The notes beneath the pieces are model-generated. The model was not told the origin of the DNA. It did no database searches and saw nothing but the letters and a program-made list of their open reading frames with translations. Source: Alphaproteobacteria bacterium (GTDB lineage Bacteria > Desulfobacterota > Binatia > UBA12015). Taken from it: a DNA stretch of 64,000 nt. The position numbers were made by a program, and so were the translations under genes. Each line of letters starts with the position of its first letter. The first letter of the stretch is position 1. This document shows positions 3,146-48,974 of this stretch, piece by piece. The DNA lies in the NCBI GenBank assembly GCA_017853315.1, contig JAFMJW010000004.1, forward strand, positions 3,008 to 67,007, given 5' to 3'.

Positions 3146-3150
3146 GGCCT

Positions 3151-5470: not shown

Positions 5471-5592
5471 GCGGGCCCCCGCGGGCGGCGCGATTCCGCG
5501 CCTCGCCCGCTCCGTGTTCCGAGGCTAGGATCGGCACCAGCCGGAACGCCGCCGCCTTCCGCGGCCACGCTCGCCGGACGGAGCCCGAAGAC

Positions 5593-6012
5593 ATGTCGCA
5601 GGACAAGGTCGTGAAGTCGGACGAGGAGTGGCGCGCGCAGCTCGGGCCCGACCAGTTCGAGGTCTGTCGCCGCAAGGCGACCGAGCGCGCCTTCACCGGG
5701 CGGTACTGGGACCACCACGAGCAGGGCACCTACTGCTGCGCCGCGTGCCGCGCCGACCTCTTCTCGTCGGCGACGAAGTACGACTCGGGCAGCGGCTGGC
5801 CGAGTTTCTGGGAACCGGTCGCCGCCGACCGGATCGCCGTCGAGGAGGACCGCAGCCACGGCATGCGGCGCACCGAGATCCTGTGCGCAAGGTGCGGGTC
5901 GCACCTGGGCCACGTCTTCGAGGACGGGCCGAGGCCGACCGGCCTGCGCTACTGCGTCAACTCCCTGTCGCTCGACTTCGAGCCGGGGAAGAAGGAGGGA
6001 GAGTCGAAATGA
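5593..6012 (+). CDS. msrB: peptide methionine (R)-sulfoxide reductase MsrB
   Basis: CxxC...CxxC zinc site and the RYCVNS catalytic motif. About 139 aa. Confidence 0.9.
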
Positions 6013-6932
6013 ACGAGCAGGACCGCGACTCGATCTTCACCATCGCGATCATGGCGGCGCTGGCCGACGGGACCGCGACGCCAGCCGAGCTCGAGCGCGT
6101 TCGCGCGCTCGGCACCACGCTCGGCGCCGCCGACCTCGACGCGATCGCCGGCCGGGTCGCGCTGGGCGCGGTCTCGCTGGCCGAGACCGCGCAGCACCTC
6201 TCCGGCGCCGAGGCGAAGAGGGCCGCCTGGGAAGCCGCCGTCGCGGTCGTCATGGCCGACGGCGTCGCCGACGCCGCCGAGAAGCGCTTCCTCGACCAGC
6301 TGCGCGGCTCGCTCGGGCTCGACGAGGGCACCGCGTCCGCAGCCGAGCGAAGCGCCACCGACTTCGCGGGCTCGACCGCGCGCCCGCTCGAGGTGGTCGA
6401 GCACCCCGCCGGCAACGCGACCGGTGCCGGCCTCGACGACCTGATCCTGCAGCAGTCGATCGCGACCGCGGCCTGCGAGCTCCTGCCCGACCGGCTCGCG
6501 AACCTGGCGATCCTCCCGCTGCAGGCGCGCCTCGTCTACCGCATCGGGCAGGCGAGCGGGCAGCCGCTCGACGCCGAGCAGGCGAAGGACCTGATGGGCG
6601 CGCTCGGGCTGGGCGCCGCGGCGCAGATCGCCGAGACCGTCGTGCGCCGCGTGCTGGGCGGCGTCGCCGGCGGGATCCTCGGACGCGCGGTCGGCGGTCT
6701 CACCGGCGTCGCGGCCGGCGCCGCGGTGACCTTCGCGTCGACCTGGGCGCTCGGCCACGCGGCGCAGCAGTACTACGCGCAGGGCCGCCAGCTCTCCGCG
6801 GACGACCTCCGCAAGCTCTTCGAGCGGTTCCGCGGCGAGGCGATCGCGCTCTACCCGAAGGTGCGCGAGCAGGTCGAGGCGCAGGCGAAGTCGCTCGACC
6901 TGGAGAAGATCCTGAAGCAGTCGCGCGCCTGA
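6009..6932 (+). CDS. TerB-like N-terminal domain / DUF533-like membrane-associated protein
   Basis: N-terminus [20 protein letters not shown] resembles the TerB fold. The C-terminal half is Gly/Ala-rich and amphipathic. Its start overlaps the msrB stop (ATGA). Confidence 0.5.
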
Positions 6933-6987
6933 GGCGCGCAGGCGGGTCCGTGGACGGACGGCCGACGCCTTCCGTCCACGGCGGGCC

Positions 6988-7965
6988 TCACGGCAGCAGT
7001 ACGATCGAGCCGGTGGTCTCGCGTCCCTCGAGGGCGCGGTGCGCCCGCTGCGCGTCGCGGAGCGGGAAGCGGTGGTGCACCGGGATCTTGACGCTCCCGC
7101 CCGCGACCACCTCGAAGAGTTCGTTCGCGGTGGCGACCAGGTCCTCGCGCCGCGCGACGTAGGAGAAGAGCGAGGGACGGGTCGCGAACAGCGATCCCTT
7201 CGCCGTCAGCAGCGACAGGTCGAACGGTCCGACCGGGCCCGAGGCGTTCCCGAAGCTCACGAACAGGCCGAGCGGCCGCAGGCAGTCGAGCGAGGCCGGG
7301 AAGGTCGCGCGACCGACGCCGTCGTAGACCACGTCGCAGAGCCGGCCGCCGGTGATCTCGCGCACCCGCGCGACGAAGTCTTCGTCGCGGTAGAGGATCG
7401 CGTGGTGGGCGCCGTGGGCGAGCGCGAGCTCCGCCTTCTCGCGCGACCCGACCGTGCCGATGACGGTCGCGCCGAGCGAGCGCGCCCACTGGCAGAGGAT
7501 CAGGCCGACGCCGCCGGCCGCGGCCTGGACGAGGATCGTCTCGCCGGGAGCGACGCGGTGCGTGCGTCGCAGCAGGTACTGCGCGGTCATGCCCTTCAGC
7601 ATCATGCCGGCGGCCTGCTCCCAGCCGATCGACGCGGGCAGGCGCACCGCGAGCGCGGCCGGCAGGTTGCGCTCCTCGGCATAGCCGCCGAGCGCGCTCA
7701 CGTAGGCGACCCGATCGCCGCGCGAGAACTCCGTCACGCCGGGTCCCACCGCGACCACCTCGCCCGCCCCCTCGTTGCCGGCGACGAACGGCAGGCCGAC
7801 CGGCGAGGGATAGAGCCCGGTGCGGAAGTAGGTGTCGATGTAGTTCACGCCGCAGGCGTGCTGGTGGATGCGGATCTCGCCCGCCCCGGGATCGCCAGGG
7901 TCGAAGGGCTCGAAGCGCAGGACTTCCGGGCCACCGAGCTCGTGCACTCTCACCGCGTTGGACAT
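6988..7965 (-). CDS. qor: NADPH:quinone oxidoreductase (zeta-crystallin family MDR)
   Basis: AAGGVG nucleotide-binding motif and GxxGxxG. MDR-family length with start taken at MSNAVRVHEL. Confidence 0.8.
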   Translation of the reverse strand: MSNAVRVHELGGPEVLRFEPFDPGDPGAGEIRIHQHACGVNYIDTYFRTGLYPSPVGLPFVAGNEGAGEVVAVGPGVTEFSRGDRVAYVSALGGYAEERNLPAALAVRLPASIGWEQAAGMMLKGMTAQYLLRRTHRVAPGETILVQAAAGGVGLILCQWARSLGATVIGTVGSREKAELALAHGAHHAILYRDEDFVARVREITGGRLCDVVYDGVGRATFPASLDCLRPLGLFVSFGNASGPVGPFDLSLLTAKGSLFATRPSLFSYVARREDLVATANELFEVVAGGSVKIPVHHRFPLRDAQRAHRALEGRETTGSIVLLP

Positions 7966-8274
7966 CGCGACCTCCGTCGGGCGCGCGGTCGTGGCGCCGC
8001 CGGCCTCCCGCAAGGGGTAGCACGGAGCCCCGGGACGGTCCCGCCGGGGACGGGGGCCCGGGACGCGAGGACGTCCCGACCTGCCGCGCTCAGGTCGCGG
8101 GAGAGACGACCGCGGCGGCCTCGATCTCGATCACGTCCTCGCAGCGCCCGCCCGTCCCGCCCCGCCCCCGCGCCGTCGGCCTTCGACGGCCGTCGAACCG
8201 CGGCGGCTGTCGGAGCCCGGCGCGTGTGCTATCCGGGGAGCACACCCCGGCTTCCCGCCGGACCAGCCGTCCGC

Positions 8275-10077
8275 ATGTCGATCCCCCGGTCGCACGAACG
8301 GCCCGGCGGACTGCTTCGCCGGGTGCCAGCGCTCGAGTCCCTGCGTTCCTACGGCAGGGAGGACGCGCGCGCCGACCTGCTCGCCGGGCTCTCGGTCGCC
8401 GCCGTCGCGGTGCCGCAGGCGATGGCCTACGCGATGATCGCCGGGCTGCCCGCGGAGTACGGCCTCTACACCGCGATCGTCATGACCGCGGTCGGCGCCG
8501 TTCTCGACTCCTCCCGCCAGCTCATCAACGGCCCGACGAACGCGATCTCGATCGCGCTGCTCTCGGCGATCGGCGGCTTCGCATCCCAGGACGAGCGCGT
8601 GCAGGCCGCGGTGCTCATGGCGCTGCTCATTGGCCTGATCCAGGTCGGCATCAGCCTGCTGCGCCTGGGCGACCTGACGCGCTACATCTCGCACTCGGTC
8701 ATCGTCGGCTTCACCGCGGGCGCGAGCGTATTGCTGGTGCTCGACCAGCTGAAGAACCTGCTCGGGCTGCAGGCGATGGGCGGCGCCCACGACCACTTCC
8801 TCGCGCGCGTCTGGCTGACGCTCGGCCAGGGCGGGCCCGTCCACCTGCCCACGCTGCTCGTGGGCCTCGCGACGATCGCCTTCGTGCTGCTCCTGCGCGG
8901 GGCGAAGCGGGCGACCGGGTGGGAGCTCCTCCCCGACTTCCTCCTCGCGGTCGTGGCCGCCGGCTTCGCCTCGTGGTGGCTCGGACTCGACGCGATGGGC
9001 GTGAAGGTCGTGGGCGACATCCCGGCGAAGCTGCCTTCGTTCCGCGTGCCGACGATCGACCCCGACCGGGTGCGCGACTTCGCGAGCGGCGCGCTGGCGA
9101 TCGCGCTGCTCGGGCTGCTCGAGGCGATCTCGATGGCCAAGGCGATCGCGTCGGTCACCCGCCAGAAGCTCGACCTGAACCAGCAGTGCCTGAGCGAGGG
9201 CGTCGCGAACCTCGCCGGCAGCTTCTTCCAGTGCATGCCCGGCTCGGGCTCGCTCACGCGCTCGGCGATCAACCAGCAGGCCGGCGCGCGCACCCAGTGG
9301 TCGGGCGTCGTCTCGGCGCTGGCCGTCGCCCTCATCATGATGGCGTTCGCGCCCTGGGCCCGCTTCATCCCGCGGTCGGCGCTCGCGGGGCTCCTCATGC
9401 TCACCGCCGCGCGCATGGTGCGGCTCGACGAGCTCGCGTTCCACACCCGGACGTCGCGCTTCGACGCGGCGATCGTCGCCGCCACCGCGATCTCGGCCTT
9501 CGCGATCTCGATCGAGTTCTGCGTCCTGATCGGCGTCTTCATGTCGTTCATGCTCGCGGTGCCGCGCACCGGGCAGATGCACCTGACCGAGTTCGTCGTC
9601 GCCGACGACCGGGCCCTCCACGAGCGTTTGCGCGACGACCCCGTGTGCGGCTGCGTGCTCCTGTTCGGGCTCGAGGGCGAGATGTACTTCGGCTCGGGCG
9701 TGAGCCTCGAGAACCACCTCGACGCGATCGCCGACCGCATCGAGCCGTGGACCCGCATCGTGCTGCTGCGGCTCAAGCGGGCGCGCAACCCCGACGCGGT
9801 CGGGATCTCGCTGCTCGCCCACTTCGTCGAGCGGATGCAGGCGCGCGGCGTCGAGGTCGTCCCCTGCGGGGTTCGCGACGGCATGTACAGCGCGATGGAG
9901 ACCTCGGGGCTCGCCGACGAGCTCGGGCGGGAGAACATCTTCCGCGAGCAGTCGGTGCGCCAGACGAGCACGCTCATGGCCCTGCGCCACGCCCGCGAGC
10001 GGATGGGGAACGCCTGCCCGCGCTGCGGCGGTCGCGGCGGCCTGCCCGCCGGGGACGTGCTGCACTACGTGATCTGA
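8275..10077 (+). CDS. SulP-family sulfate/anion permease with C-terminal STAS domain
   Basis: AVPQAMAYAMIAGLP SulP signature, multiple transmembrane segments, and a C-terminal STAS-like region (LLFGLEGEMYFGS). Confidence 0.85.
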   Translation: MSIPRSHERPGGLLRRVPALESLRSYGREDARADLLAGLSVAAVAVPQAMAYAMIAGLPAEYGLYTAIVMTAVGAVLDSSRQLINGPTNAISIALLSAIGGFASQDERVQAAVLMALLIGLIQVGISLLRLGDLTRYISHSVIVGFTAGASVLLVLDQLKNLLGLQAMGGAHDHFLARVWLTLGQGGPVHLPTLLVGLATIAFVLLLRGAKRATGWELLPDFLLAVVAAGFASWWLGLDAMGVKVVGDIPAKLPSFRVPTIDPDRVRDFASGALAIALLGLLEAISMAKAIASVTRQKLDLNQQCLSEGVANLAGSFFQCMPGSGSLTRSAINQQAGARTQWSGVVSALAVALIMMAFAPWARFIPRSALAGLLMLTAARMVRLDELAFHTRTSRFDAAIVAATAISAFAISIEFCVLIGVFMSFMLAVPRTGQMHLTEFVVADDRALHERLRDDPVCGCVLLFGLEGEMYFGSGVSLENHLDAIADRIEPWTRIVLLRLKRARNPDAVGISLLAHFVERMQARGVEVVPCGVRDGMYSAMETSGLADELGRENIFREQSVRQTSTLMALRHARERMGNACPRCGGRGGLPAGDVLHYVI

Positions 10078-10118: not shown

Positions 10119-10544
10119 TCAGTCCTCGGAGGAGGCGCGCGTGCCGCGCGCGCGCTTCACGTCCGAGCGCGCCCGCTTGTCGGAGAGCCGACGCTCGCGC
10201 GCCGCCCGGCCGGGCTTCGTCGGCCGCCGCGGGCGCGGCGGCACCGCGACGGCGGCGAGCATCGCGCGGAGCTTCTCCACGCAGTCGGCGGCGTTGCGCC
10301 CCTGGTCGCGGTAGCGGTCGCTCGACAGTACGACCTCGCCCGCGAGCGTGACGCGGGTCGCGAAGCGCTCGAGGAACCGCTCGCGGACGTCGGCCGCGAT
10401 CGCGGACGACGACGCGACCGGCCAGCGCAGCACGGCCTTCGTGTTCACCTTGTTGACGTTCTGGCCGCCCGCGCCCGAGCTCCGCACGAAGCGGATCTCG
10501 AGCTCGCGCAGCGGCACGGCCGGCGTCTCCGCGGGCGCGCTCAC
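10119..10544 (-). CDS. arfB: alternative ribosome-rescue factor ArfB (peptidyl-tRNA hydrolase, GGQ family)
   Basis: SGAGGQNVNKVNTKA GGQ motif, a basic C-terminal tail, 141 aa. GTG start overlaps the stop of the upstream GNAT gene (GTGA). Confidence 0.85.
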   Translation of the reverse strand: MSAPAETPAVPLRELEIRFVRSSGAGGQNVNKVNTKAVLRWPVASSSAIAADVRERFLERFATRVTLAGEVVLSSDRYRDQGRNAADCVEKLRAMLAAVAVPPRPRRPTKPGRAARERRLSDKRARSDVKRARGTRASSED

Positions 10545-11053
10545 GGCAGCGGCTTCTCCCAGAAGAAGGTCTGCTCGGGGCGGCCGCCGAGCGCCTCGCC
10601 CGGGGCCCCCGCCCCGCCGACGAAGCCGACGCTGCGGTAGAGGCCCTGCGCGACCCGGTTGTCGCCGCGCACCTCGAGCGTGATGCGGCAGCAGCCGAGC
10701 GCGCGCGCCCGCTCCTCGACCGCGGCGAGCAGCCGCCGGCCGATCCCTGCGCGCCGGCGCGACGGCACGACGGCGAGGTCGTGCAGGTTCAGCAGCGGGC
10801 GCGCACTCCAGGTCGAGAAGCCGCGGAAGCAGACCGCGATGCCGACGGGCTCGTCGCCCTGCCAGGCCAGCAGCACGAACCCGGTCGGGTGCGCCGCGAG
10901 GCCGGGCACGAGCGCGCGGCGCACGTCCCCGGGCAGGGGGCGTCCGCCGTGCATCGCCTCGCGCGCGTAGCCGTCGACCAGGTCGACGACCGCGCGCGCG
11001 TCGACCGGGTCGTCGAGCGCCGCCTCGCGAACGATGAACGGCGCCGCGGCCAC
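10541..11053 (-). CDS. GNAT-family N-acetyltransferase
   Basis: RRAGIGRRLL acetyl-CoA-binding motif. GTG start at 11053 was chosen 5 nt after the SDR stop. The longer ORF upstream of that is Arg-rich shadow. Confidence 0.6.
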   Translation of the reverse strand: MAAAPFIVREAALDDPVDARAVVDLVDGYAREAMHGGRPLPGDVRRALVPGLAAHPTGFVLLAWQGDEPVGIAVCFRGFSTWSARPLLNLHDLAVVPSRRRAGIGRRLLAAVEERARALGCCRITLEVRGDNRVAQGLYRSVGFVGGAGAPGEALGGRPEQTFFWEKPLP

Positions 11054-11058
11054 CGGGA

Positions 11059-11838
11059 TCAGAACGGCTCGAAGGGCCAGTTCGAGGCCTCCGTCCCGCC
11101 GTCGACCTCGAGGATCTTGCCGGTCACCCAGCTCGACGCGGGAGAGGCGAGGTAGAGGGCCGCGATCGCGATGTCCTCGACCGTGCCGAGACGCCGCATC
11201 GGCGTCAGCGCCTCCATCTTCCCGCGCAGGTCGTCGTCGAGGAACGGCGAGAGCGCCGTCGTCTCGGTCGCGCCGACCGCGATCGCGTTCACCCGCACCT
11301 TGGGCGCGAGCTCCATGCCGAGCAGGCGGGAGAGGAACGAGAGCGCGGCCTTGGAGGTGCCGTAGGCGGCGAAGCCGGCCTGCGGGAAGCGCCCCGCAGC
11401 CGACGAGATGTTCACGATCGAACCTCCGCCCCCGTCCATCATCTTCGGCACGACGAGCCGCGAGAGGACGAAGGCCGAGGTCACGTTGAAGCGGAAGGCG
11501 TCCTCGAACGACTTCTGGCTCGTGCGCAGGAAGCCCTGCGGCGGCCAGCCGCCCGCGTTGTTCACCAGCACGTCGATCCGGCCGAACTCGGCCATCGTGC
11601 GCGCGACGACCTCCTCGAGCTGCTCGCGCTCGTTCACGTCGCAGCGCACCGTCACCGCGCGGCGACCGTGGCGCCGGACCTGCTCGGCGGTCTCGTCGAG
11701 CTGCTCCTGCGTGCGCGCGGCGCACACGACGTCCGCGCCCATCTCCGCGAACGCGGCCGCGCAGCCCGCGCCGATGCCGCGGCCCGCGCCCGTCACGATC
11801 GCCGTCTTTCCGTCGAGGCGAAACCGGTCGAGAATCAT
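11059..11838 (-). CDS. SDR-family oxidoreductase (3-oxoacyl-ACP reductase-like)
   Basis: TGAGRGIG Rossmann motif, NNAG, and a YGTSK catalytic tetrad. Confidence 0.8.
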   Translation of the reverse strand: MILDRFRLDGKTAIVTGAGRGIGAGCAAAFAEMGADVVCAARTQEQLDETAEQVRRHGRRAVTVRCDVNEREQLEEVVARTMAEFGRIDVLVNNAGGWPPQGFLRTSQKSFEDAFRFNVTSAFVLSRLVVPKMMDGGGGSIVNISSAAGRFPQAGFAAYGTSKAALSFLSRLLGMELAPKVRVNAIAVGATETTALSPFLDDDLRGKMEALTPMRRLGTVEDIAIAALYLASPASSWVTGKILEVDGGTEASNWPFEPF

Positions 11839-11873
11839 GTCGTACGTCTCCTTGTCGAGGTTTCTTCCTGAGA

Positions 11874-13160
11874 TCACGTCCCGCCCGCGGGCGCCACCCG
11901 GCCGCCCTCGCGCAGCGCCACTTCGCCGACCACCACGCTCTCGCCGCCTTCGAGTCCGGAGACGACGCGGGCCTTCTCGCCCGACGAGCCCGCGGTCTCC
12001 ACCCGGACCTTGCGGGCGCGGCCGTCGCGCACCGCCCAGACGAAGGAGTCGGTGCCCTCGCGGCGCACGGCCGACGCCGGGACGAGGACCGCCGGCTCGG
12101 CCGGGGCCGCGGACGCGGGGTCGGGCAGGAACGACACGCGCGCGCTCATGTCCGGCAGGAGCCGCGCGTCGGGCTCGAGGATGCCGACCTCCACCTTGAG
12201 CGTCCCCTTCTGGCGGTCGACCTGCGGGTAGAGCTTCACGACCTTCGCGGGGTAGCGCGCGTCGGGGTAGGCGTCGGGTACGACCTCGGCCGGCCCGCCC
12301 ATGCGCACGCGCTGCAGGTCTGCCTCGTTCACGTCGACCTCGGCGCGCAGGTCGGACAGGTTCGCGATCCGGATCAGGTCGCCCGAGCCCGAGAACCCGC
12401 CGGGGACCGCGATCTCGCCGACTTCCTTCAGCTTCGCGAGCACGACGCCGTCGGTGGGCGCGCGCAAAGTCGTGTACTCGAGGTTCACGCGCGCCTGCGC
12501 GAGCTCGGCCTCGAGCTGCTCGATCGTCGCCGCGCTGACCCGCGCCTTGTTGCGCAGCACGTCGTGCTCCTGGGCCGAGAGCACGCCGGAGCGGCGCAGG
12601 GCGTCGCCCCGCCGCAACTCGTTCGCGGCGAGCTCCGCGTTGGCGCGGGCGAGCACGAGCGCCGCCTCGGATCGCCGCAGGGCCGCCCGGTAGTCGCGGT
12701 CGTCGAGCGCCACCAGCGCGTCGCCCTTGTGCACCGGCTGGCCTTCCTCGACGAAGTAGCGCTCGATCCGCCCGGGGACCCGGACGCCGATCGAGACGTA
12801 GCGGTCGCCGGTCACGACGTAGCCCGAGCCCGACAGCAGGGGGGCGCGCTCCGAGCCGGGCTCGGCCCGCTGCGCCACCGCGACCTCGACCGGCACCGGG
12901 CGGCCGCGCCACGCGGCGAACCCCGCGCCGAGCGCCGCGAGCAGCAGCAGCGGGATCGCCACGCGCCGCAGCCGCCGCCCCGGGCCGCGCTTCACCGCCG
13001 GGCGAGACGCGGGCTCGCGCTCGAGGCGCAAGGATGCCAGGTCTTCGCGCAGCCGTCCGCCGCGCGCGTTCCCGTCGTCGGTCGTCCTGTTCTCCAAGGG
13101 ATCCCGTCCCGTCACGCCCGCCGCAGCGCCTCGATCGGCCGCAGGCGAGCCGCCCGCCAC
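11874..13160 (-). CDS. HlyD/MacA-family periplasmic adaptor (membrane fusion protein)
   Basis: Single N-terminal transmembrane segment, coiled-coil, then beta-barrel-like regions. Typical MFP architecture. The exact start is uncertain. Confidence 0.75.
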   Translation of the reverse strand: MAGGSPAADRGAAAGVTGRDPLENRTTDDGNARGGRLREDLASLRLEREPASRPAVKRGPGRRLRRVAIPLLLLAALGAGFAAWRGRPVPVEVAVAQRAEPGSERAPLLSGSGYVVTGDRYVSIGVRVPGRIERYFVEEGQPVHKGDALVALDDRDYRAALRRSEAALVLARANAELAANELRRGDALRRSGVLSAQEHDVLRNKARVSAATIEQLEAELAQARVNLEYTTLRAPTDGVVLAKLKEVGEIAVPGGFSGSGDLIRIANLSDLRAEVDVNEADLQRVRMGGPAEVVPDAYPDARYPAKVVKLYPQVDRQKGTLKVEVGILEPDARLLPDMSARVSFLPDPASAAPAEPAVLVPASAVRREGTDSFVWAVRDGRARKVRVETAGSSGEKARVVSGLEGGESVVVGEVALREGGRVAPAGGT

Positions 13161-14287
13161 GCCGGGCCGAGCCCGCCGCCCAAGCCGACGGCGAGGGCGA
13201 GCAGCAGCGCACCCCCGAGGTCGGCGAGCGAGAGCCTTAGCGTGACCACGTTCGTCGTGAAAGTCGACGCGCCGAACGCGATCCCGCCGAGCCAGCGCGA
13301 GAGGGCGACCGAGAGGAGCCAGGACAGCGCGGCGCCGAGTGCGAAGCCGAGCAGCGAAAGCGCGACGGCCTCGACCTCGAACGCGGCGAGGATGGCCCCC
13401 CGGGAGAAGCCGAGCGCGCGCAGCGTGCCGATCTCCGCGGTGCGCGACTGCACGGCCGCGTACATCGTGTTCGCGGCGCCGAAGCCCGCACCGAGCCCCG
13501 CGAGCACCGCGATGCCGATCACGATCACGTAGAGCGTGTTCGCCGAGCTCGCCTGCTTGCGGTAGTACTCCGGCTCCGGCACGGCCTCGATCGCGAAGCG
13601 CGGGTCGGCGTCGATGCGCCGCTCGAGGCGCTCGAGGTCGGCGGCCGACGCCGCCCGCAGGCGGACCCCCGAGTAGGGAAACGGGCGCCGCGCGTCGTTC
13701 GCGAGCTCGCGCGCGTCGACCCAGACCTCGCTCTCGAAGGACGAGCCGCCCGACTCCATCACGCCGACCACCTTCCAGCGCCCGCGTCCGAACTCGAGCT
13801 CGCTGCCGACCGTCGCGTCGGCGTAGCGACCGAGCGCACCTCGACCGACGACCGCCTCGCCCGCGCTCGGCCGCAGCATCCGTCCCTCGACGATCCGGAC
13901 GTCGTCGTGCACGCCGAGCGCCGCGGCCTCGACGCCGCGCACGAGCACGTTCTCGCGGCCGCCGTCCCTGGTGCGGAAGAACGGCTGCACGACGAGCTCG
14001 GGCGAGACCAGCGGACGCTCCTCGGCGTCGCGCGCGATGCCGTCCTGGAAGCGGATCGACTGGAAGGCCTCGAGCGTGATCTGGCTCGAGCCGTCGTTGT
14101 CCGAGCCCTTGCGCATGACGACCAGGTTCAGCGGGTGGCCGGTCGAGACGAGCGTGTGCTTCAGGCTCGAGATGAGCCCGAGCAGCAGCGTGCAGGCGAC
14201 GACCACGAGCGCCACGACGAGCGCGGTCATGAGGCTCCGGGTCGGGCGCGCCACGACGTTGCGCACCGAGTAGGAGAGCGGCAGCAC
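13112..14287 (-). CDS. ABC transporter permease, FtsX/MacB/LolE-like (second permease)
   Basis: N-terminal LSYSVRNVVARPTRSLMT FtsX signature, a large periplasmic domain, and a C-terminal 3-TM bundle. GTG start at 14287 is 1 nt after the glycosyltransferase stop. Confidence 0.7.
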   Translation of the reverse strand: MLPLSYSVRNVVARPTRSLMTALVVALVVVACTLLLGLISSLKHTLVSTGHPLNLVVMRKGSDNDGSSQITLEAFQSIRFQDGIARDAEERPLVSPELVVQPFFRTRDGGRENVLVRGVEAAALGVHDDVRIVEGRMLRPSAGEAVVGRGALGRYADATVGSELEFGRGRWKVVGVMESGGSSFESEVWVDARELANDARRPFPYSGVRLRAASAADLERLERRIDADPRFAIEAVPEPEYYRKQASSANTLYVIVIGIAVLAGLGAGFGAANTMYAAVQSRTAEIGTLRALGFSRGAILAAFEVEAVALSLLGFALGAALSWLLSVALSRWLGGIAFGASTFTTNVVTLRLSLADLGGALLLALAVGLGGGLGPAWRAARLRPIEALRRA

Positions 14288-14288
14288 G

Positions 14289-15938
14289 TCAGGAGTCCCG
14301 GGGAGCGGTCGCGGGGGCCGTGCCGGGGGAGGCCCCCCGCTCGATCCTCGCCACGCGAAACGGCGGCGGGGCCCGCCGCTCGTCGACCACGTAGCCCGCC
14401 GCGCGGAGCGCCGCGAGGGTCTCGTCTCCGCCCGAGTCGCGCTCGGGCAGCACGACGAGAACCGCGCGCGAGGGCAGGCGCGGCGCATGCGCGGCGATCT
14501 CGCCCGGACGAAGGCAGGTCGTGCCTCCCTCCCGGAGGCGATCCACCAGCCGCTCGGGCCGGAACGAGCCCTCCTTCTCGAAGACCCCGACCGGCGCGAA
14601 GACGACCGGGAGCGCGTCGCGTCGGGCGTGCCAGGCCCAGGTCATGCAGTCCTCGACGAGCGGCGTGGCCACGACCGTCGGCAGGGAGGGCCCGGCTCCC
14701 GCTTCCGTCGAGACCCGTACGATCTGCCTCCACGGGGGCCCGGGCCAGATCCGGGCGAAGCCGCGCGAGGCAGCGACCGCGAGGAGAATCGCGACGAACG
14801 CCCTGCCGGCGGGCGGCCACGGCAGCCGCGCGACCGCGACACCCAGCAGCGCCACCCAGCCGAGGGCACAGAAGAGCAGGTAGCGGGAGAGGAACATCGG
14901 CGCGCGTTGCGAGACGAGCCATGCGAGCAGCACCGGAACGACGGCCCACGACGCGAGCGACGCGAATCGCCAGCCTTCCCCGGGAGGGTCGTCCGGAGCG
15001 GCCCGCCGCCCGGCGAGCGATCCCGTCCCGGCCGCGGAAGTCGCGGCTCCCGTGCCCGCCCCTCTCGCGAGGAACCATGCACCCGCGACCGCGGCCGCGA
15101 GCCCCCAGAGGAGCGCCGACCGGCCCCCGGCGAGATCGCTCGCGAGCCGGAGGAGGTCGTGGCGGCCCGGCACCGGCCGCCAGTCGTAGGGCTGCACCGG
15201 CATGACCCCGACGATCGCCCAGGCAAGCGGTGCGCAGACCGCGGCAGCGACCGCCTGCGCGGCGAGCCACGACCGGAACGCGCGCGGAGCCCGTCGCCAG
15301 GCCCACGCCGCCGCGGGGGCCTGGGCCACGAAAGCGAACCCGGTCGCGTAGTGCGTCGCGACCGACACGACCTCGACGAACCCGAGGGCGGCGGCCGTTC
15401 GCCGGCGTGGCCGCGCGAAGAGCTCGAAGAAGAGGCCCCAGGCCGCGACGCAGAGCAGCTGGACCAGGCCGTAGGATCGCGCCTCGCGCGCCCACCGCCA
15501 CTCGAGCGGGTTCACGAGGAAGAGCAGCGCCGACCACAGCGCCGCCTCGCCGCCGAAGAAGCGTCGTACGACGAGGAACAGCGCCGCGACGGCCGCGGCA
15601 CTCGCGACCGCCGACGGGAACCGCATCGACACCTCGGACACGCCGGCGACCTGCGCCCAGCCTGCCGCGAGGAGGTTGTAGACCGGCGGGTTCTCGTCGT
15701 GGAAACCGACGTGGAGGATCGTCGTCAGCGGCTGCACGGCCAGCGCCGCGGTCCAGGTTTCGTCGATCCAGAAGCTGTTGCGGCCGAGTGCGGGCAGCGT
15801 GGTCGCGAGACGGATCGCCACGATCGCCAGCGCCGCGAGCCACGGGTGCGCGTCGATCGCGCGAACGGTCGCGCCCGGGATGCGGGCCGCGAGGTCGCCC
15901 ACGGCCCCTCCCCGGTCCCCGCGCGCGCCGGTCGCCAC
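14289..15938 (-). CDS. GT-C fold membrane glycosyltransferase (family 39/83-like, ArnT/PMT-type)
   Basis: LGRNSFWIDETWTAALA first-loop DE motif typical of GT39/ArnT. Many transmembrane segments plus a roughly 130 aa soluble C-terminal domain. Confidence 0.6.
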   Translation of the reverse strand: MATGARGDRGGAVGDLAARIPGATVRAIDAHPWLAALAIVAIRLATTLPALGRNSFWIDETWTAALAVQPLTTILHVGFHDENPPVYNLLAAGWAQVAGVSEVSMRFPSAVASAAAVAALFLVVRRFFGGEAALWSALLFLVNPLEWRWAREARSYGLVQLLCVAAWGLFFELFARPRRRTAAALGFVEVVSVATHYATGFAFVAQAPAAAWAWRRAPRAFRSWLAAQAVAAAVCAPLAWAIVGVMPVQPYDWRPVPGRHDLLRLASDLAGGRSALLWGLAAAVAGAWFLARGAGTGAATSAAGTGSLAGRRAAPDDPPGEGWRFASLASWAVVPVLLAWLVSQRAPMFLSRYLLFCALGWVALLGVAVARLPWPPAGRAFVAILLAVAASRGFARIWPGPPWRQIVRVSTEAGAGPSLPTVVATPLVEDCMTWAWHARRDALPVVFAPVGVFEKEGSFRPERLVDRLREGGTTCLRPGEIAAHAPRLPSRAVLVVLPERDSGGDETLAALRAAGYVVDERRAPPPFRVARIERGASPGTAPATAPRDS

Positions 15939-15939
15939 G

Positions 15940-17106
15940 TCAGAACACCTCTCGCAGCGCGTCGACGACCGGCTTGCGCGCGGCGCCGAGCGCCGGGACG
16001 AGCCCGGAGAGCAGGCCCACGACCAGCGAGAGCGCGAGCCCCGCGGTGACGACGTCGTTCGTGACCGTGAAGTTCCCGAGCGGCCCGAGCGTCGGCCCGA
16101 GCGTCGCGACCGTCTTGAGCGCCCGGGTGAGCGCGATCGCCCCCGCCACGCCGAGCGCTCCCGCGAAGCTCGAGAGGAGCGTCGCCTCGGCGAGCAGCGT
16201 GCCGAAGATCGCGCGCCGCCCGAAGCCCATCGCCTTCATGACCGCGATCTCGCCCGAGCGCTCGCGCACCGCCATCGAGGCGGTGTTCGCCGCGATGAAG
16301 ACGATGCAGAGCGAGACGAGCGCCGTCACGATCAGGATGATCGTGACGAAGCCCTTCAGCGAGCCGAAGAAGTTCGAGATGAAGCTCTTCTCGGTCTCGC
16401 TCGCGGTCGGCGACTCGCTGTTGCGCGACATCTCGTCGATCTCGGACATGAGGGTTCCGACCCGCTCCGGGCGGTCGACGCGCACCCAGATGATGCCCGC
16501 GATCCCGAGCCCACCCCGCCCGGCCGCCTTCAGCGTCTCGTCCAGGTAGGTCCGGTTGATCCACAGCATCGGCGCGTTGTCGTCGGCGATCTCGCCGACG
16601 ATTCGAAGGTCGAGGTTCGCCGGCCACACCGTGCTCCGCAGCGTGATCCGGTCGCCGACCTTCCATCCGTACTGGCGCATGATCTTGCGCCCGACGATCG
16701 CGCCGTCGCGGTGGCGAACGAAGTCCTCGACCGCGCCCGGGGTGAACACGTAGTCGGGGTAGACCGAGCCCACGTGCTCCGCCTCGACCGCGAAGTTGGG
16801 GAACGTGACCTTCCCCTCCTCCTCGTAGGCGCCGCCGAACCAGGTCATCGACACCGCCGCGAGCACCCCGTCGAGCTGGCGCACCTTGCGCGTGAACGAC
16901 TGCGGCATCGAGTAGACGAGCCCCGCCTTGTTGTGGACCGAGATGCGGGTGTTGCTGCCGAGATCCGAGATCAGCCGGTCGAGGCCCGCGGGCATGGTCA
17001 TGAGCAGGCACACGAGCAGGACCGCGAGCGCGATCGCCCCCGCCGTGAACAGGCTTCGCAGCTTGTTGCGGCCGAGATTCGCGAGCACGAGCCCCGCGTA
17101 CTTCAC
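15940..17106 (-). CDS. ABC transporter permease, FtsX/MacB/LolC-like (first permease)
   Basis: [18 protein letters not shown] FtsX N-terminal signature. GTG start overlaps the ATPase stop (GTGA). Confidence 0.75.
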   Translation of the reverse strand: MKYAGLVLANLGRNKLRSLFTAGAIALAVLLVCLLMTMPAGLDRLISDLGSNTRISVHNKAGLVYSMPQSFTRKVRQLDGVLAAVSMTWFGGAYEEEGKVTFPNFAVEAEHVGSVYPDYVFTPGAVEDFVRHRDGAIVGRKIMRQYGWKVGDRITLRSTVWPANLDLRIVGEIADDNAPMLWINRTYLDETLKAAGRGGLGIAGIIWVRVDRPERVGTLMSEIDEMSRNSESPTASETEKSFISNFFGSLKGFVTIILIVTALVSLCIVFIAANTASMAVRERSGEIAVMKAMGFGRRAIFGTLLAEATLLSSFAGALGVAGAIALTRALKTVATLGPTLGPLGNFTVTNDVVTAGLALSLVVGLLSGLVPALGAARKPVVDALREVF

Positions 17107-17936
17107 GGGCGCGCCCCGGCCGACGCATGCCCGCCCGCCGCGAGCCGGATCGCCTCCGAGGCCCGCTCGGCGTCGCTTCCTTCGAGCAGGAGTCCCTTGT
17201 CGAGGTGGAAGACCTCGTCGACGAAGCGCAGGGCGCGCGGGTCGTGAGTGACCATGACGATCGTCTTGCCGAAGGCGTCGGTCAGCTCGCGCAGCAGCCC
17301 GAGCGTCGCCTCGGCGTTCTTCGCGTCGAGGTCGCCGGTCGGCTCGTCGGCGACGATCAGGTCGGGGTCGGTCACGATCGCGCGCGCGATCGCGACGCGC
17401 TGCTGCTCGCCGCCCGAGAGCGTGTTCGGGCGGTGGTCGAGCCGGTGGTCGAGGCCGACCACGCGCAGCGCGGTCTCGGCGCGACGGTGGCGCTCGGCCT
17501 TGCCGAGTTCGGTGAGCAGCAGCGGCAGCGCGACGTTGTCGCGGGCGTCGAGCACCGGGATCAGGTTGAAGAACTGGAAGATGAGCCCCACGTGGCGGGC
17601 GCGCCAGGCCGCGAGCTCGTCCTCGTCGAGGTCGCCGAGCGACTGCCCCGCGACGACCACCTCGCCCTCGCTCGGCCGATCGAGCCCGGAGACCAGGTTC
17701 ATGAGCGTCGACTTGCCGGACCCCGACGGCCCCATGAAGGCGACGAAGCGGCCCGGGGAGATCCGCAGCGACACGTCCTCGAGCGCATGGACCTCGTCGA
17801 CGCCGCGGCGGTAGCGCCGGGACACGTGCCGGATGTCGATGAGAGTCGCTTCCTCGGGCGCGGACGGCGGCGGGCCGGGAAACGGGTCCGCGGGCGGCAT
17901 GCGCAGAGGGTACCGGACCCCCCGCAGGGGAGCCAT
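17103..17936 (-). CDS. ABC transporter ATP-binding protein (LolD/MacB ATPase type)
   Basis: Walker [24 protein letters not shown] signature, Walker [13 protein letters not shown]. Confidence 0.85.
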
Positions 17937-18033
17937 CGAGGAGCGCCTCGGGGATCGCTCGGACAGGGAGCGCCGGGGAGGGCTCCGCGAACTGCCGACG
18001 ACAGCCCGGCGACGGCGTGGTACCGCTCCCGCC

Positions 18034-18603
18034 GTGTCCAACCCGTTCGCCCGAGCGATCCGGATCGTCGTGGAAGCCGCCGATCGCGGCGGCTTCCGGG
18101 CGGCCCTCATCGGGGGCTTCGCCCTCGATCTTCACCGGGTGCGCCGCACCACGGGCGACGTCGACTTCCTGGTGGAGGAACGCGGCGCGGATCCTCTGAT
18201 CGCCGAATTGCAACGAGAAGGAATGCGCCTGCTTCACCGCTCCGACGAGGTCGCCAACCTCGAGTCGTCACGACCGGAGATCGCGTCCGTCGACCTGCTC
18301 TTCGCGCGTCGGGAGCCCACGCTCGCCATGCTGAGTCGCGCCCGGACTCGCCGGCTGGCCGTCGACGCACTCGCGGTCCCGGTGGTCGACGTCGAAGGCA
18401 TCATCGGCCTGAAGGCCCAGGCGATGTGCAACGATCCGCGGCGACGGCGCCGCGACGAGCAGGACATCGTCGACCTGCTCGGGCTCTGGCTGCCGGAGTT
18501 GGACCTCGCTCTTCTTCGAGGCTATTTCTCCCTCCTGGAAGCGGACGATGACTTCGAACGACTCCTCACCGAAGCCCGAGACCAGCGAGCCCGGCGTGGC
18601 TGA
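18034..18603 (+). CDS. nucleotidyltransferase-fold protein (MNT/AbiEii-like), hypothetical
   Basis: GGFALDLHRVRRTTGDVDFLVE matches the minimal NTase G-x(n)-D-x-D pattern. The start is uncertain and taken as GTG 18034. Confidence 0.4.
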   Translation: MSNPFARAIRIVVEAADRGGFRAALIGGFALDLHRVRRTTGDVDFLVEERGADPLIAELQREGMRLLHRSDEVANLESSRPEIASVDLLFARREPTLAMLSRARTRRLAVDALAVPVVDVEGIIGLKAQAMCNDPRRRRRDEQDIVDLLGLWLPELDLALLRGYFSLLEADDDFERLLTEARDQRARRG

Positions 18604-18769
18604 CCCCGATCCGGAGCAGTCGCCCGCCGTCCATCGCCGGGCCGATCGCGCTTCGCGGGCCCAGCACGACATCGACGACTTCCTCCGCTTCCTCGATCAA
18701 GTCGAGGAGATCGGGGGGAAGATCCGCAAGCCGCGGACGATCAGCCTCGGGAACCGCTTCGTCCTCTGA
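18596..18769 (+). CDS. small hypothetical protein overlapping the NTase stop
   Basis: 58-73 aa ORF. Its GTG is 8 nt inside the upstream gene. No recognisable domain. Confidence 0.2.
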   Translation: MADPDPEQSPAVHRRADRASRAQHDIDDFLRFLDQVEEIGGKIRKPRTISLGNRFVL

Positions 18770-18825
18770 CCCGGGCCGGGCGCCCGGGACGGCGAAACGC
18801 GGCAGCACCGGATTGCACGAGCCCC

Positions 18826-18856
18826 GCGAACGTCTCGCAGATCGTCGCGGTCGATC
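18826..18856. repeat. 31-bp direct repeat, copy 1 (gcgaacgtctcgcagatcgtcgcgGtcgatc)
   Basis: Matches 19925-19955 with a single mismatch. Confidence 0.7.
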
Positions 18857-19019
18857 GACGATACCTGGCGCAACGAGCCGGGCGGGTCCCCGCGGCGAAG
18901 TTGGCCCTCGTCCTCGGCGGCATCGACGTCGTGCTCGGACGCTGACGCCCCGGGCGGATCCCTCCTGGGGTCGTGTGCATCTGCCGCCGTTCGAGACCGT
19001 TCGCCGAAATCCGCAGCGC

Positions 19020-19364
19020 TCAGCGCAGCCAGTCGGCGAAGACCCGCCGGAACGCGGTCACCGCGCGGGCGCGGTCCGCCCGGGACAGGCGGCCGATCGG
19101 CTTGTCGATCAGCTCCTCGTCGACGGTTGCGACCTTCGCCATGCGAAGCAGGCTCGGATGGAGCAGCCCCGCCTCCTCCCAGTCCGCGAGCAGCACGTCG
19201 CCCTGGAAGTCGAGCGCCTCCACCTGGCTCGTGATCATCGCGAGCGTGACCAGGGCATAGCGGGGAGCGCGGGCGGTTCGCGACAACAGGAGCGCGGGTC
19301 GCTTCTTCGCGGCAGCGACCTCGGTGAACGGAAACCGGACGAGGACCACCTCCCCGGGCTTCAT
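19020..19364 (-). CDS. MazF/PemK-family type II toxin (mRNA interferase)
   Basis: GEVVLVRFPF...KKRPALLLS is the classic PemK/MazF N-terminus. 114 aa. Start overlaps the antitoxin stop (ATGA). Confidence 0.8.
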   Translation of the reverse strand: MKPGEVVLVRFPFTEVAAAKKRPALLLSRTARAPRYALVTLAMITSQVEALDFQGDVLLADWEEAGLLHPSLLRMAKVATVDEELIDKPIGRLSRADRARAVTAFRRVFADWLR

Positions 19365-19579
19365 AGCCGGTCGTAGTCGGAATCCCGGGGGTCGTCCCAC
19401 TCCTCGAAGGCCGACTCGGCGAGCTTCCCCAGTGCCTTCGTCTCGAGCCGTTCGGCGAAGTACGCCTCGAGGGCCCGGCAGAGAACCTCCTTCACGGTCG
19501 TGTCGCGCTCGCTCGCCTCCGCCTTGAGAAGCCGCATGAGGCGCGGGTCCGAGAGATCCGTCGAGAGTCGCGTGCCCAT
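19361..19579 (-). CDS. ribbon-helix-helix-type antitoxin, partner of the MazF-like toxin
   Basis: 72 aa. A beta-strand then helix pattern (TRLSTDLSDPRLMRLLKAEA) fits RHH. Directly upstream of the toxin with a 4-nt overlap. Confidence 0.6.
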   Translation of the reverse strand: MGTRLSTDLSDPRLMRLLKAEASERDTTVKEVLCRALEAYFAERLETKALGKLAESAFEEWDDPRDSDYDRL

Positions 19580-19924
19580 CTCCGCGCGTTACTGTCTTTC
19601 TGCTTTCATGTCAATCAGTCGACGATCCGGTTCCGGAGCGCCGCGGGGATCGCGGTCGACTCCCGGGACATCGCGCCCCCTCGAAAGGGCTGCGCCGTCC
19701 ACGAAAACGGGGCAACCCCGGACGCGTGGCGGGCCGACTTGCCGGACCCTGCGGTTCGGGTCCGAGGATTTCGTCGACCCGTCGTGGTCGTCCAGGGGAA
19801 TCATCTGAACCGCGGCCGCGTCCCCACGGCGGCGTGCCCCCTGACGAGCGACGTCGCCTGGGCCGACGCCCCCGGGAACGTTCTTCTCGGAACCGCCGCG
19901 ACCGGTCCCCCCGAGGAGTCGGTC

Positions 19925-19955
19925 GCGAACGTCTCGCAGATCGTCGCGATCGATC
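19925..19955. repeat. 31-bp direct repeat, copy 2
   Basis: See copy 1. Lies just 3' of the RelE-like toxin stop. Confidence 0.7.
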
Positions 19956-19956
19956 T

Positions 19957-20241
19957 TCACCTCCGCCGGAGCAGGCGGACATAGACCTCGCGACGGTGCG
20001 CGACGCCGATCACGTAGACGACGATCTCGGTCGCATGCACCTCGTACAGGATGCGGTGGTCGCCGACCCGAATCCGGTAGGCACCCTTTCGGCCCTTCAG
20101 GGCGACCGCACCAACGGGACGGGGGTCGTCCCGAAGGCCATCGATGACGTCCCGCACCAGCGCCCGGGTCTTCTTCGGAAGAGCCAGGATCTCCCGGTGC
20201 GCCTCCCGATGGAGAACGATCCTATAGGTCGTCGCGGACAT
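19957..20241 (-). CDS. RelE/ParE-family type II toxin
   Basis: 94 aa. YRIVLHREAHREILALPKK...YRIRVGDHRILYEV matches the RelE/ParE fold pattern. Confidence 0.8.
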   Translation of the reverse strand: MSATTYRIVLHREAHREILALPKKTRALVRDVIDGLRDDPRPVGAVALKGRKGAYRIRVGDHRILYEVHATEIVVYVIGVAHRREVYVRLLRRR

Positions 20242-20422
20242 CCGACCACGCGACCCACGGACCTCCCCTACGCTCCTCGATGAGCGCCATGTCCTCGGCA
20301 TCCTCGAGCCACGCGGCGATGGCCTCCGAGACCACCGCCTGCTGCTTGAGGCCGTGCTCCGCGCAGAACCGATCGAGCTCCGCCTTGAGTGCGTCGTCGA
20401 TCCGGTGGGTGATGGCAGCCAT
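20222..20422 (-). CDS. RelB/DinJ/ParD-type RHH antitoxin
   Basis: MAAITHRIDDALKAELDRFCAEHG is a typical RHH antitoxin N-terminus. Its end overlaps the toxin start by 20 nt. Confidence 0.7.
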   Translation of the reverse strand: MAAITHRIDDALKAELDRFCAEHGLKQQAVVSEAIAAWLEDAEDMALIEERRGGPWVAWSDVRDDL

Positions 20423-20545
20423 GCCCCGGAGAATGCCAGCAAACGACAGCATTCGCAAGCGACGGCCGGGCCGGCCGATACGAGAGATCCAGCCCATGCC
20501 CAGGTGCCGGTTGCCGGCACGCCCCTGTGTCTTGCATCGTCGCAC

Positions 20546-20767
20546 GTGAAGACCTCGACCATCACGATCCGCCTCGACGACGAACTCGAGCGCGAGCTCG
20601 ACCGAGCCTGCGCCCGCACGGGTCGGACGCGCAGCGACCTCGCACGGGACGCGCTTCGGCGACAGCTTGCGCTGCTCCGGTTCGAGCGGCTGCGGAAGCG
20701 GACGCTGCCCCTGGCGGAGTCGCAGGGGTATCTGACCGACGAGGACGTCTTCCGCGACGTTTCGTGA
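20546..20767 (+). CDS. CopG/RHH-family antitoxin (VapB-like)
   Basis: TITIRLDDELERELDRACARTGRTRSDLARDALRRQL. Its stop overlaps the PIN gene start (GTGA). Confidence 0.65.
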   Translation: MKTSTITIRLDDELERELDRACARTGRTRSDLARDALRRQLALLRFERLRKRTLPLAESQGYLTDEDVFRDVS

Positions 20768-21345
20768 AGGTCTTCTTCGACACGAACGTCCTCGTGGCGG
20801 CGTTCGCGACGCGCGGTCTTTGCGCGGACCTGTTCGCGCACGTCCTGCTCGAGCACGAACGGATCGTCGGCGAGGTCGTCCTCGACGAACTTCGCGAGAC
20901 GCTCCGCACCAGGATCGAGTTCCCGAAGAAGTCGATCGACGAGATCGAAGCGCTGCTGCGCGAGGCGACCGTCGTCGAGAAGCCACGCAAGCACCTGGGC
21001 TTGAACGTCAAGGACCCGGACGACGAGTGGATCGTGGCCTCCGCCGTTGCCGGTGCTGCGGACGTGCTGGTCACGGGTGATGCAGCCGTGCTCCGGATCG
21101 CGGCACGCTCGCCCTTGAAGATCGCGAGCCCACGCGGCTTCTGGGATCTCCTTCGCGGCCCGGCCCGCGAGCGGCGACCTTCCGTCCGACCAGCCGACCA
21201 TCTCCGCAAGCGGGCGGTCCCGGCACCGAGCCCCCGGCGCCGCCCCCGACCGCGGGCCGTGATAAGCACCGACCCATGCCACCCGGAGGCGACACGCCAT
21301 CCCCCCGGTCCTTCCCCCCGCGGATCGCCGGCATCCTCAACATGA
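20764..21345 (+). CDS. PIN-domain toxin (VapC-like) with an extended low-complexity C-terminal tail
   Basis: VFFDTNVLVAA PIN N-terminal motif with conserved Asp. The ORF runs about 60 aa beyond a normal PIN domain and overlaps the DHPS start. Confidence 0.65.
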   Translation: MKVFFDTNVLVAAFATRGLCADLFAHVLLEHERIVGEVVLDELRETLRTRIEFPKKSIDEIEALLREATVVEKPRKHLGLNVKDPDDEWIVASAVAGAADVLVTGDAAVLRIAARSPLKIASPRGFWDLLRGPARERRPSVRPADHLRKRAVPAPSPRRRPRPRAVISTDPCHPEATRHPPGPSPRGSPASST

Positions 21346-32229: not shown

Positions 32230-32279
32230 CGCCACCACGTCGGGATCGATGCCGACGGCCCGGCACCAGGCGGGGGCGC

Positions 32280-35669: not shown

Positions 35670-35734
35670 GCGCGCGCGGCCGCCCGCGCGCGAGACGGGC
35701 GGCCGGCCCATCTGCCCGCCGGGGCCGAGGAATG

Positions 35735-47847: not shown

Positions 47848-47870
47848 CGTCCGAAGGCGCCCCTCCCCGC

Positions 47871-48968: not shown

Positions 48969-48974
48969 CGGGCC

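Follow-up and report, generated by a model that had tools for sequence, protein, structure and literature searches.

In a 64,000-nucleotide stretch of contig JAFMJW010000004.1 (assembly GCA_017853315.1; Binatia in the GTDB lineage), hereafter called the window, the gene of a membrane glycosyltransferase of the GT-C type lies between the two permease genes of an ATP-binding cassette (ABC) exporter operon. The reading that we favor, at a probability of about 0.55, is that this glycosyltransferase (GT) is a co-expressed, strain-specific accessory that decorates the cell envelope from the periplasmic side, and is not an obligatory partner of the exporter. The cluster comprises eight consecutive genes on the minus strand (10119-17936), coding in order for an ATPase, a first FtsX-type permease (FtsX1), the GT, a second permease (FtsX2), a periplasmic adaptor, an SDR oxidoreductase, a GNAT acetyltransferase and ArfB. 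Pfam and NCBIfam models supported each of these calls, and both the gene order and the gene identities read in the original prediction, which had been made from the letters alone, were thereby borne out. Taken singly, the ArnT-like GT-C, the MacB-type pump and the adaptor are all of known kinds, and it is their combination that appears to be new. In the literature searched we found no case of a GT-C gene separating the permease genes of a MacB-type pump, and no paper on a GT-C inside a MacB/FtsX operon, which agrees with the earlier claim that the arrangement is undescribed; a review of the MacB family, covering homodimeric, heterodimeric and fused topologies, nowhere contains the word stem ‘glycosyl’.

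The central open reading frame (ORF; 14289-15938, minus strand, 549 aa) is a genuine GT-C of the ArnT/PMT_2 type, and is an orthologue of neither ArnT nor PMT. It matched PMT_2 (PF13231) at 47.3 bits, well above the gathering score of 26.1, and its alleles in four other loci (L003, L004, L006 and L102) matched the same model at 42-50 bits; PF02366, which had also been proposed as a check, gave no match. A profile built from 38 homologues of the GT recovered the ArnT of C. metallidurans (5EZM; E 1.2e-9) and TMEM260 (1e-4). The AlphaFold2 model of the protein (pLDDT 84.8, pTM 0.86) predicted approximately 11-12 transmembrane helices, a disordered loop at residues 298-320, and a C-terminal alpha/beta domain at residues 401-535. 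When this model was compared with the PDB by Foldseek, ArnT (5F15/5EZM) came first, with E 1e-8, a TM-score of 0.53 and about 15% identity, and all 21 matches with E≤1e-3 were GT-C proteins (ArnT, Pmt4, AglB, STT3, AftA, PglB, ALG9 and ALG12). The FWIDETW motif (15753-15773, minus strand) places D59-E60 in the first extracytoplasmic loop, where the pair, the DE motif named in the original prediction, aligns with D55-E56 of the C. metallidurans ArnT; likewise, E82-N83-P84-P85 aligns with ArnT E84-K85-P86-P87. Both of these catalytic residues, D59 and E60, are unchanged throughout the 38 homologues as well as the five allele groups described below. The family is a large one, as an exhaustive profile search retrieved 17,290 proteins at E<1e-30, most of them about 500 aa long and aligned over their whole length, the named proteins among the more distant matches being actinobacterial ‘mannosyltransferase’ or ‘RgtA/B/C/D-like’. 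Close homologues of the window GT are nonetheless few (92, 87, 84, 82, 53 and 38% identity), beyond which identities fall to about 35% or less over partial alignments.

The pump is a member of the MacB superfamily of type VII ABC transporters, since both permeases, FtsX1 (15940-17106, minus strand, 388 aa) and FtsX2 (13112-14287, minus strand, 391 aa), matched the MacB_PCD and FtsX domains above the gathering score, and the ATPase (17103-17936, minus strand, 277 aa), which is of the type of LolD, FtsE and the nucleotide-binding domain (NBD) of MacB, matched ABC_tran at 121.5 bits. Its best NCBIfam matches, to LolD, FtsE and the MacB NBD, all scored below the equivalog cut-offs. An alternative ATG at 17900 would shorten the ATPase to 265 aa. 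The two permeases matched each other only locally, with 37% identity over 89 aa, and are thus ancient paralogues. The closest solved relatives of FtsX1 are YtrF, Spr0695 and YbbP, and those of FtsX2 are MacB, Spr0695, YtrF, LolF and LolC. The adaptor, a membrane fusion protein of 413 aa with an N-terminal membrane anchor (11874-13115, minus strand; alternative TTG start at 13097), scored 209 bits with RND_mfp TIGR01730 (cut-off 94.9) and 89.8 bits with HlyD_D23.

For comparison, 80 loci were collected from GTDB with an FtsX2 alignment as query and 80 from metagenomes with the single FtsX2 protein as query, and the eight window proteins were mapped on them; the second set as analyzed consisted of 77 of the 80 metagenome loci together with L086-L089. 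The order ATPase-FtsX1-FtsX2-adaptor was found in almost all fetched loci, in metagenome-assembled genomes (MAGs) labelled Candidatus Binatia, Myxococcota, Thermodesulfobacteriota or ‘Deltaproteobacteria’, and the adaptor gene followed FtsX2 in nearly all related loci. The ATPase is 68-100% identical across about 150 related loci, and more than 120 database clusters contain an FtsX2 of at least 72% identity. The gap between the permease genes was -1 to 40 nt in 60 of the 71 GTDB loci in which both gene ends could be read, with the junction consensus ‘...GAGGTSTTC TGA (c) GTG CTG CCG CTC TCC TAC’, and it was below 60 nt in 44 of 65 such loci of the second set. Of the gene families neighboring this four-gene core, none recurred in more than 10 of the 80 loci. 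ATPase, FtsX1, FtsX2 and adaptor are a self-contained module that is widespread and strongly conserved. In about 145 of the related loci the permease genes abut each other or are separated only by short repeat inserts, and none of these loci has a GT between them; since the pump is conserved there without it, the pump does not need the GT. A profile of the GT, run over all ORFs of the fetched loci, indeed placed a GT at the junction only in L001-L004, L006, L085-L092 and L102; in addition, tblastn and blastx detected the 3' end of a junction GT, and no more of it, on L005, a contig of 1,955 bp. The original prediction had held that homologous loci lacking the GT would imply a chance insertion; such loci make up most of the transporter family, but not the clade to which the window belongs.

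Two loci of other lineages deserve mention here. L135, whose junction is GT-less, carries a PMT_2 gene of a different subfamily (10850-12535) on the same strand, about 45 nt past the adaptor gene. In L150, a different-subfamily PMT_2 gene is likewise the next ORF after the adaptor gene on the same strand (2385-5291), and the junction is GT-less.

Within the window's clade, the arrangement is stable. The same gene order recurs in independent assemblies (L001/L002, L003, L004, L006, L086-L092 and L102), and hence is neither a chance pattern of ORFs nor an assembly artefact. In L102, on a 282-kb contig with an FtsX2 labelled Candidatus Binatia, the full eight-gene order is present, with identities to the window of 76% for FtsX1, 82% for FtsX2, 77% for the adaptor, 77% for the SDR, 71% for the GNAT protein and 75% for ArfB, while the GT is only about 33-40% identical. 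The synteny that the original prediction had proposed to check thus holds in relatives of the window down to 76% identity in FtsX1 and 82% in FtsX2; the approximately 145 other loci are without a junction GT. On neighbor-joining trees of FtsX1 plus FtsX2, the GT-bearing loci were monophyletic, and the GT-less L059 was their sister. In the window, the GT gene is separated by one nucleotide from each permease gene, with the sequence TGA-c-GTG on the upstream side (spacer 15939, minus strand) and again on the downstream side (spacer 14288, minus strand), so that the ancestral permease-permease junction, TGA-(c)-GTG, now flanks the GT on both sides. The spacer between FtsX1 and GT is also 1 nt in L003, and zero in L001 and L004; that between GT and FtsX2 measures 1-2 nt in L001, L003 and L006 and is longer in L102 (about 20 nt) and in L004 (47 nt). 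A Shine-Dalgarno (SD)-like GAGAGG lies 8 nt upstream of the GT start. Given the monophyly and the ancestral junction on both sides, the distribution fits a single insertion, and the simplest account is that the gene was inserted once, precisely where the FtsX1 stop met the FtsX2 start, and was then retained in a Binatia-related clade. It is to be noted that the MAGs of two of the fetched loci carry the labels ‘Klebsiella pneumoniae’ (L006, CAMBZJ010000013.1) and ‘Enterobacteriaceae’ (L059, CAZGUU010000434.1); both are Binatia-like, with about 70% GC, and the labels are evidently wrong.

The GT differs from its flanking genes most clearly in its variability. Five allele groups were recognized, which are 33-56% identical in the GT, whereas FtsX1 and FtsX2 are 72-98% identical, the GT protein changing about 10 times faster than its flanks. 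Compared with the window, L003 is 92.8% identical in FtsX1, 54.6% in the GT and 94.7% in FtsX2; for L006/L086 the respective values are 91.0, 49 and 89%, and for L004 they are 72, 36 and 84%. Even the periplasmic domains of the permeases are 91-95% identical where the GT is at 47-55%. The breakpoints are sharp: DNA similarity between the window and L006 is 89.8% up to the FtsX1 stop, falls at precisely that point to 67%, and rises again from the FtsX2 start, and similarity between the window and L005 (94.5%) starts exactly at the GT stop. In the L005 comparison, FtsX2 is 98.2% identical (dS 0.14) next to a GT of 39.6% identity (dN 0.66) over 91 C-terminal columns. A nonsynonymous divergence (dN) of 0.66 beside a synonymous divergence (dS) of 0.14 in the flank is beyond what divergence in place would give, and points either to allele replacement or to long-lived divergent alleles with homogenized flanks.

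These divergent alleles are not decaying. All of them are intact ORFs of 491-556 aa, and between the window and L001 the GT has a dN/dS of 0.34 (dS 0.21), as against 0.09-0.10 for the permeases (dS 0.32-0.36); the GT is under purifying selection that is weaker than that on the permeases. Some 90 GT residues do not vary at all between the five allele groups, among them D59, E60, N83-P84-P85, Y87, R106, R151-E152-A153-R154, H196, R352-Y353 and C431/C475. Conservation across the groups is about 50% in the transmembrane core and 27% in the C-terminal domain, which is the least conserved folded part, and it looks as if the chemistry of the enzyme were kept while a specificity domain diversifies. 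Despite this low conservation of the domain, the cysteine pair C431 and C475 within it is invariant in all five groups, which suggests a possible periplasmic disulfide. The flanks are conserved, the alleles are very divergent yet intact, and the breakpoints coincide sharply with the gene borders, a combination that resembles the population pattern of surface-antigen loci. One can also picture the GT as a strain-specific glycosylation step in a surface-export route, in which a lipid-anchored or lipoprotein substrate would be decorated on the periplasmic side and then extracted by the pump and passed to the outer membrane or the cell surface, with the divergent alleles maintained in the population by diversifying or frequency-dependent selection that phages, predators or antimicrobials would impose, comparable to that on O-antigen and capsule loci, and with the permease genes acting as recombination anchors; we regard this as improbable. 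In the favored reading, the variability would belong to an accessory that is expressed along with the pump.

The FtsX1/FtsX2 junction is, moreover, an insertion hot spot in its own right. In L086-L089, which represent the widely sampled P0029 lineage, it holds the GT plus two opposite-strand genes (3305-5832) between FtsX1 and the GT, coding for a metallo-beta-lactamase (MBL)-fold protein with a weak match to the anti-Pycsar protein Apyc1 and for a beta-lactamase-like lipoprotein; the GT is still 2 nt from FtsX2 in spite of these extra genes. L006 (6563-8152) comes from this population as well, with a dS of about 0.01, and lacks the MBL gene through a 1.26-kb indel. In L039, a Thermodesulfobacteriota MAG, a 7.5-kb insert (1908-9488) lies between FtsX1 and FtsX2 and includes, besides several ORFs without a Pfam match, the gene of a DUF1254/DUF1214 protein, although it may be a misassembly. 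Repeat-rich inserts of 67-413 nt are frequent at the junction of GT-less relatives, and occupy it in L014, L018, L026, L028, L030, L033, L034 and L043, and in the second set junction inserts were found in 21 of 65 loci, the GT-bearing L086-L090 and L102 among them. The insert of L018 consists of four tandem 32-nt units, each of which re-creates the first FtsX2 codons followed by a stop, and these units form mini-ORFs that overlap as ATGA. A transposon or integron signature was sought for the junction and not found.

The favored reading may accordingly be spelled out as a series of proposed steps. The two permeases would act as a heterodimer in the manner of LolC/LolE. As its donor, the GT would use a sugar linked to polyprenyl phosphate, the synthesis of which would be encoded elsewhere in the genome, and it would glycosylate an envelope acceptor at the periplasmic face, the candidates being lipid A or the lipopolysaccharide (LPS) core, another glycolipid, a lipoprotein or a protein. 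Its variable C-terminal domain would set a strain-specific acceptor or linkage specificity, like the serotype-specific GT-C of the Gtr-type systems discussed below. The position in the operon would give co-expression with the pump, perhaps within a shared envelope-defense response, and the GT would sit at the junction because this intercistronic site tolerates insertions. Several points weigh against this reading. The step of strain-specific envelope decoration is taken solely from analogy. The GT is fixed beside FtsX2 throughout the clade (FtsX1 down to 72%, adaptor 77%) and through the turnover of its alleles, and such a constant position suggests selection for that position and not mere tolerance. 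The L005 comparison, which is the decisive one, covers a partial GT of 91 aligned columns; the dS of the GT between allele groups is itself raised, to about 0.8; and NG86 estimates are unreliable in a genome of 74% GC when dN is high. Lastly, the PMT_2 genes of L135 and L150 hint at a recurrent functional link between pump and GT-C, although two loci are too few to tell such an association from chance.

The last points lead to the best-surviving alternative, in which export and glycosylation are coupled, as the original prediction had suggested. Here the GT-C would cooperate physically or kinetically with the heterodimeric permease, and a lipid or lipoprotein, once glycosylated in the periplasm, would be expelled through the adaptor and a TolC-like duct by MacB-type mechanotransmission. 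The junctions on both sides of the GT do look translationally coupled, the GT is always beside FtsX2 in the monophyletic clade even where other genes part it from FtsX1, and independent PMT_2 genes lie on the same strand just downstream of the adaptor gene in L135 and L150; in addition, MacB-type pumps take up their substrates from the periplasm (PMC5985334), the compartment in which a GT-C acts, and the window contains genes of TolC-like outer membrane efflux proteins (OEPs). Set against this are the approximately 145 related loci that keep the pump with no GT at the junction, the unrelated genes and repeats that other loci hold at the same site, and the splitting of the operon by two opposite-strand genes in L086-L089. 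Furthermore, the permeases and their periplasmic domains stay at 91-95% identity against 47-55% for the GT and 27% for its presumed acceptor-binding domain, with no sign of co-evolution. On balance, the retention beside FtsX2 and the PMT_2 genes of L135 and L150 speak for such a coupling, the lack of co-variation between permeases and GT and the permissive site speak against it, and we consider it unlikely. The earlier proposal was also weakened by the 64 kb containing neither a polyprenyl-phosphate-sugar synthase nor a flippase.

A role in resistance to antimicrobial peptides was also weighed, whereby the GT would place a sugar on lipid A or the LPS core as ArnT does, so that cationic peptides bind less well, and a MacAB-like efflux pump, linked to it by regulation only, would expel compounds of that same class. 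ArnT is the closest solved relative of the GT by both profile and fold, the position of its D55/E56 is kept, and MacAB, BceAB and YknXYZ are known for peptide and antibiotic resistance (PMC5985334); the organism is, besides, a diderm, as its OmpA, TolC-like and MlaC genes indicate. Nevertheless, no NCBIfam ArnT model matched the GT, ArnT K85 is replaced by N83, and the 64 kb contain no arnABCDEF-like or GT2 synthase genes. Lipid A, being an invariant acceptor, would moreover leave the extreme variability of the C-terminal domain unexplained, and this reading is improbable. That the GT is a neutral hitchhiker or decaying insertion, which landed by chance in a permissive site and persists without a useful function, is very improbable, for although the junction is demonstrably permissive and the GT evolves much faster than its flanks and has the weakest per-codon codon-bias score of the eight genes, all of its alleles are intact at 491-556 aa, dN/dS between close alleles is 0.34 and not about 1, D59/E60 and some 90 other residues are invariant across groups that are 33-56% identical, and the gene has been kept across a deep clade.

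Of the remaining three genes of the cluster, that of the SDR oxidoreductase (11059-11877, minus strand, 272 aa) matched adh_short_C2 at 218.8 bits; its more likely start is an ATG at 11838 behind AAGGAGA, which would give 259 aa. The GNAT acetyltransferase (10541-11053, minus strand, 170 aa) matched Acetyltransf_1 at 68.5 bits, and ArfB (10119-10544, minus strand, 141 aa), an alternative ribosome-rescue peptidyl-tRNA hydrolase, matched NF006718 at 138.6 bits (cut-off 100) and is a housekeeping gene unrelated to transport. The SDR gene directly follows the adaptor gene only in the window's clade (L001, L002, L006, L086-L089 and L102), and GNAT and ArfB adjoin the pump only there; this restriction reflects shared ancestry and offers no independent association. 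The suggestion that SDR and GNAT tailor the exported substrate consequently found no independent evidence. As to the junctions, the GTGA overlaps of the ATPase stop with the FtsX1 start and of the GNAT stop with the ArfB start, as well as the 1-nt gaps on the two sides of the GT, read as had been reported. The broader statement that every junction is tight stood for these four and not in full, since the junctions of the adaptor and the SDR depend on the choice of start, the SD-backed ATG at 11838 leaving a gap of 35 nt between adaptor and SDR. The window is 70-78% GC and its raw ORF lists are rich in spurious frames, and ORFs were called with a GC3 frame plot and start-codon tables.

Upstream of the ATPase gene lies a stretch of lower GC content (17937-21000, about 70%), with a fragment of an AbiEii toxin gene (18034-18603, plus strand), a MazF/PemK toxin gene (19020-19364, minus strand) and, upstream of the latter, a small ORF that may be its antitoxin (19361-19579, minus strand); L086-L089 have an AbiEii remnant in the corresponding position. 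On the downstream side, the cluster ends at a convergent SulP gene. Rfam gave zero matches in the window, and terminator-like sites were at chance level. Pfam, run on approximately 58 of the 67 called window ORFs, returned housekeeping functions, an OmpA-family protein and two genes of TolC-like OEPs that are accompanied by ABC-2/MlaC sets, and revealed neither a GT2 polyprenyl-phosphate-sugar synthase nor a GtrA-type flippase; these two could be encoded elsewhere in the genome. The transport sets are a TolC-like OEP, an ABC-2 permease, MlaC and an ATPase (45859-50563, minus strand), and a 686-aa OEP, an ATPase and an ABC-2 permease (54857-59042, plus strand). A further cluster (31462-35738, minus strand) combines the genes of a DUF4407 protein and of an OmpA-domain protein of 520 aa with two ORFs that Pfam does not match.

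The locus belongs to a narrow, uncultured lineage, and to a specialist the arrangement and its variability, reminiscent of antigen loci, would come as a mild surprise. If the link between pump and GT is functional, it would point to a new way to make and display variable envelope glycoconjugates in an uncultured and poorly known phylum (Binatia), and would give a first indication of what is transported by a four-gene pump that is very widespread and highly conserved. Should the two be linked by position only, the locus still provides a clear case of an insertion hot spot within an operon whose function is preserved.

Comparison with known systems shows where each part of the locus departs from its nearest relatives. 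With the lipoprotein transporter LolCDE, the pump shares an ATPase encoded on its own and a pair of adjacent, paralogous permeases of the FtsX type, and LolD is the top NCBIfam match of the ATPase; the pump differs in having an adaptor gene, of which Lol has none, and in its gene order, and the scores remained below the cut-offs of both TIGR02212 (41-43 bits, cut-off 362) and the LolD model TIGR02211 (222.9, cut-off 307.75). The DevBCA glycolipid exporter was rejected on its scores (DevA TIGR02982, 197 bits, cut-off 296; DevB TIGR02971, 59 bits, cut-off 129). MacAB-TolC is alike in its MacB_PCD and FtsX permease domains, its MacB/LolD-like NBD, the adaptor in the operon and the presence of TolC-like genes in the genome. 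It is unlike the pump in that here the NBD is separate, two deeply diverged permeases stand in place of a homodimer, and a GT-C lies between the permease genes; the MacB model NF007826 scored 18-213 bits (cut-off 966), the MacA model NF008606 scored 69.8 (cut-off 342), and the OEP genes are outside the operon.

Among glycosyltransferases, the protein O-mannosyltransferases (GT39 PMT) were set aside, as PF13231 was the sole match, with no PF02366, MIR or PMT_4TMC, and Pmt4 was a weaker fold match (E 7e-5). ArnT, the undecaprenyl-phosphate-L-Ara4N:lipid A transferase of family GT83, resembles the GT in its GT-C fold, its C-terminal soluble domain and its membership of PMT_2. It is only about 15% identical and has K85 where the GT has N83, and the GT is, in its turn, set inside a pump operon, hypervariable between strains and without arn genes nearby; ArnT proper was rejected since the NCBIfam models that did match were others, at 31 and 22 bits (cut-offs 900 and 126), and since the window has no arn-like or GT2 genes. 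The closest functional analogy is the serotype-specific GT-C of the three-component periplasmic glycosylation systems, which comprise GtrA/GtrB/Gtr* and the GT136 systems (Kelly et al. 2024, PMC11127046). A three-component system in the strict sense is not at hand, because synthase and flippase are absent from both operon and window; the flanks are pump permeases instead of gtrA/gtrB, there is no O-antigen locus nearby, and no link to a prophage was seen. The likeness lies in the design itself: in both cases a variable, specificity-setting GT-C is flanked by conserved genes, the donor would be a lipid-phosphate-sugar in the periplasm, and an extra extracytoplasmic domain of the enzyme may bind the acceptor.

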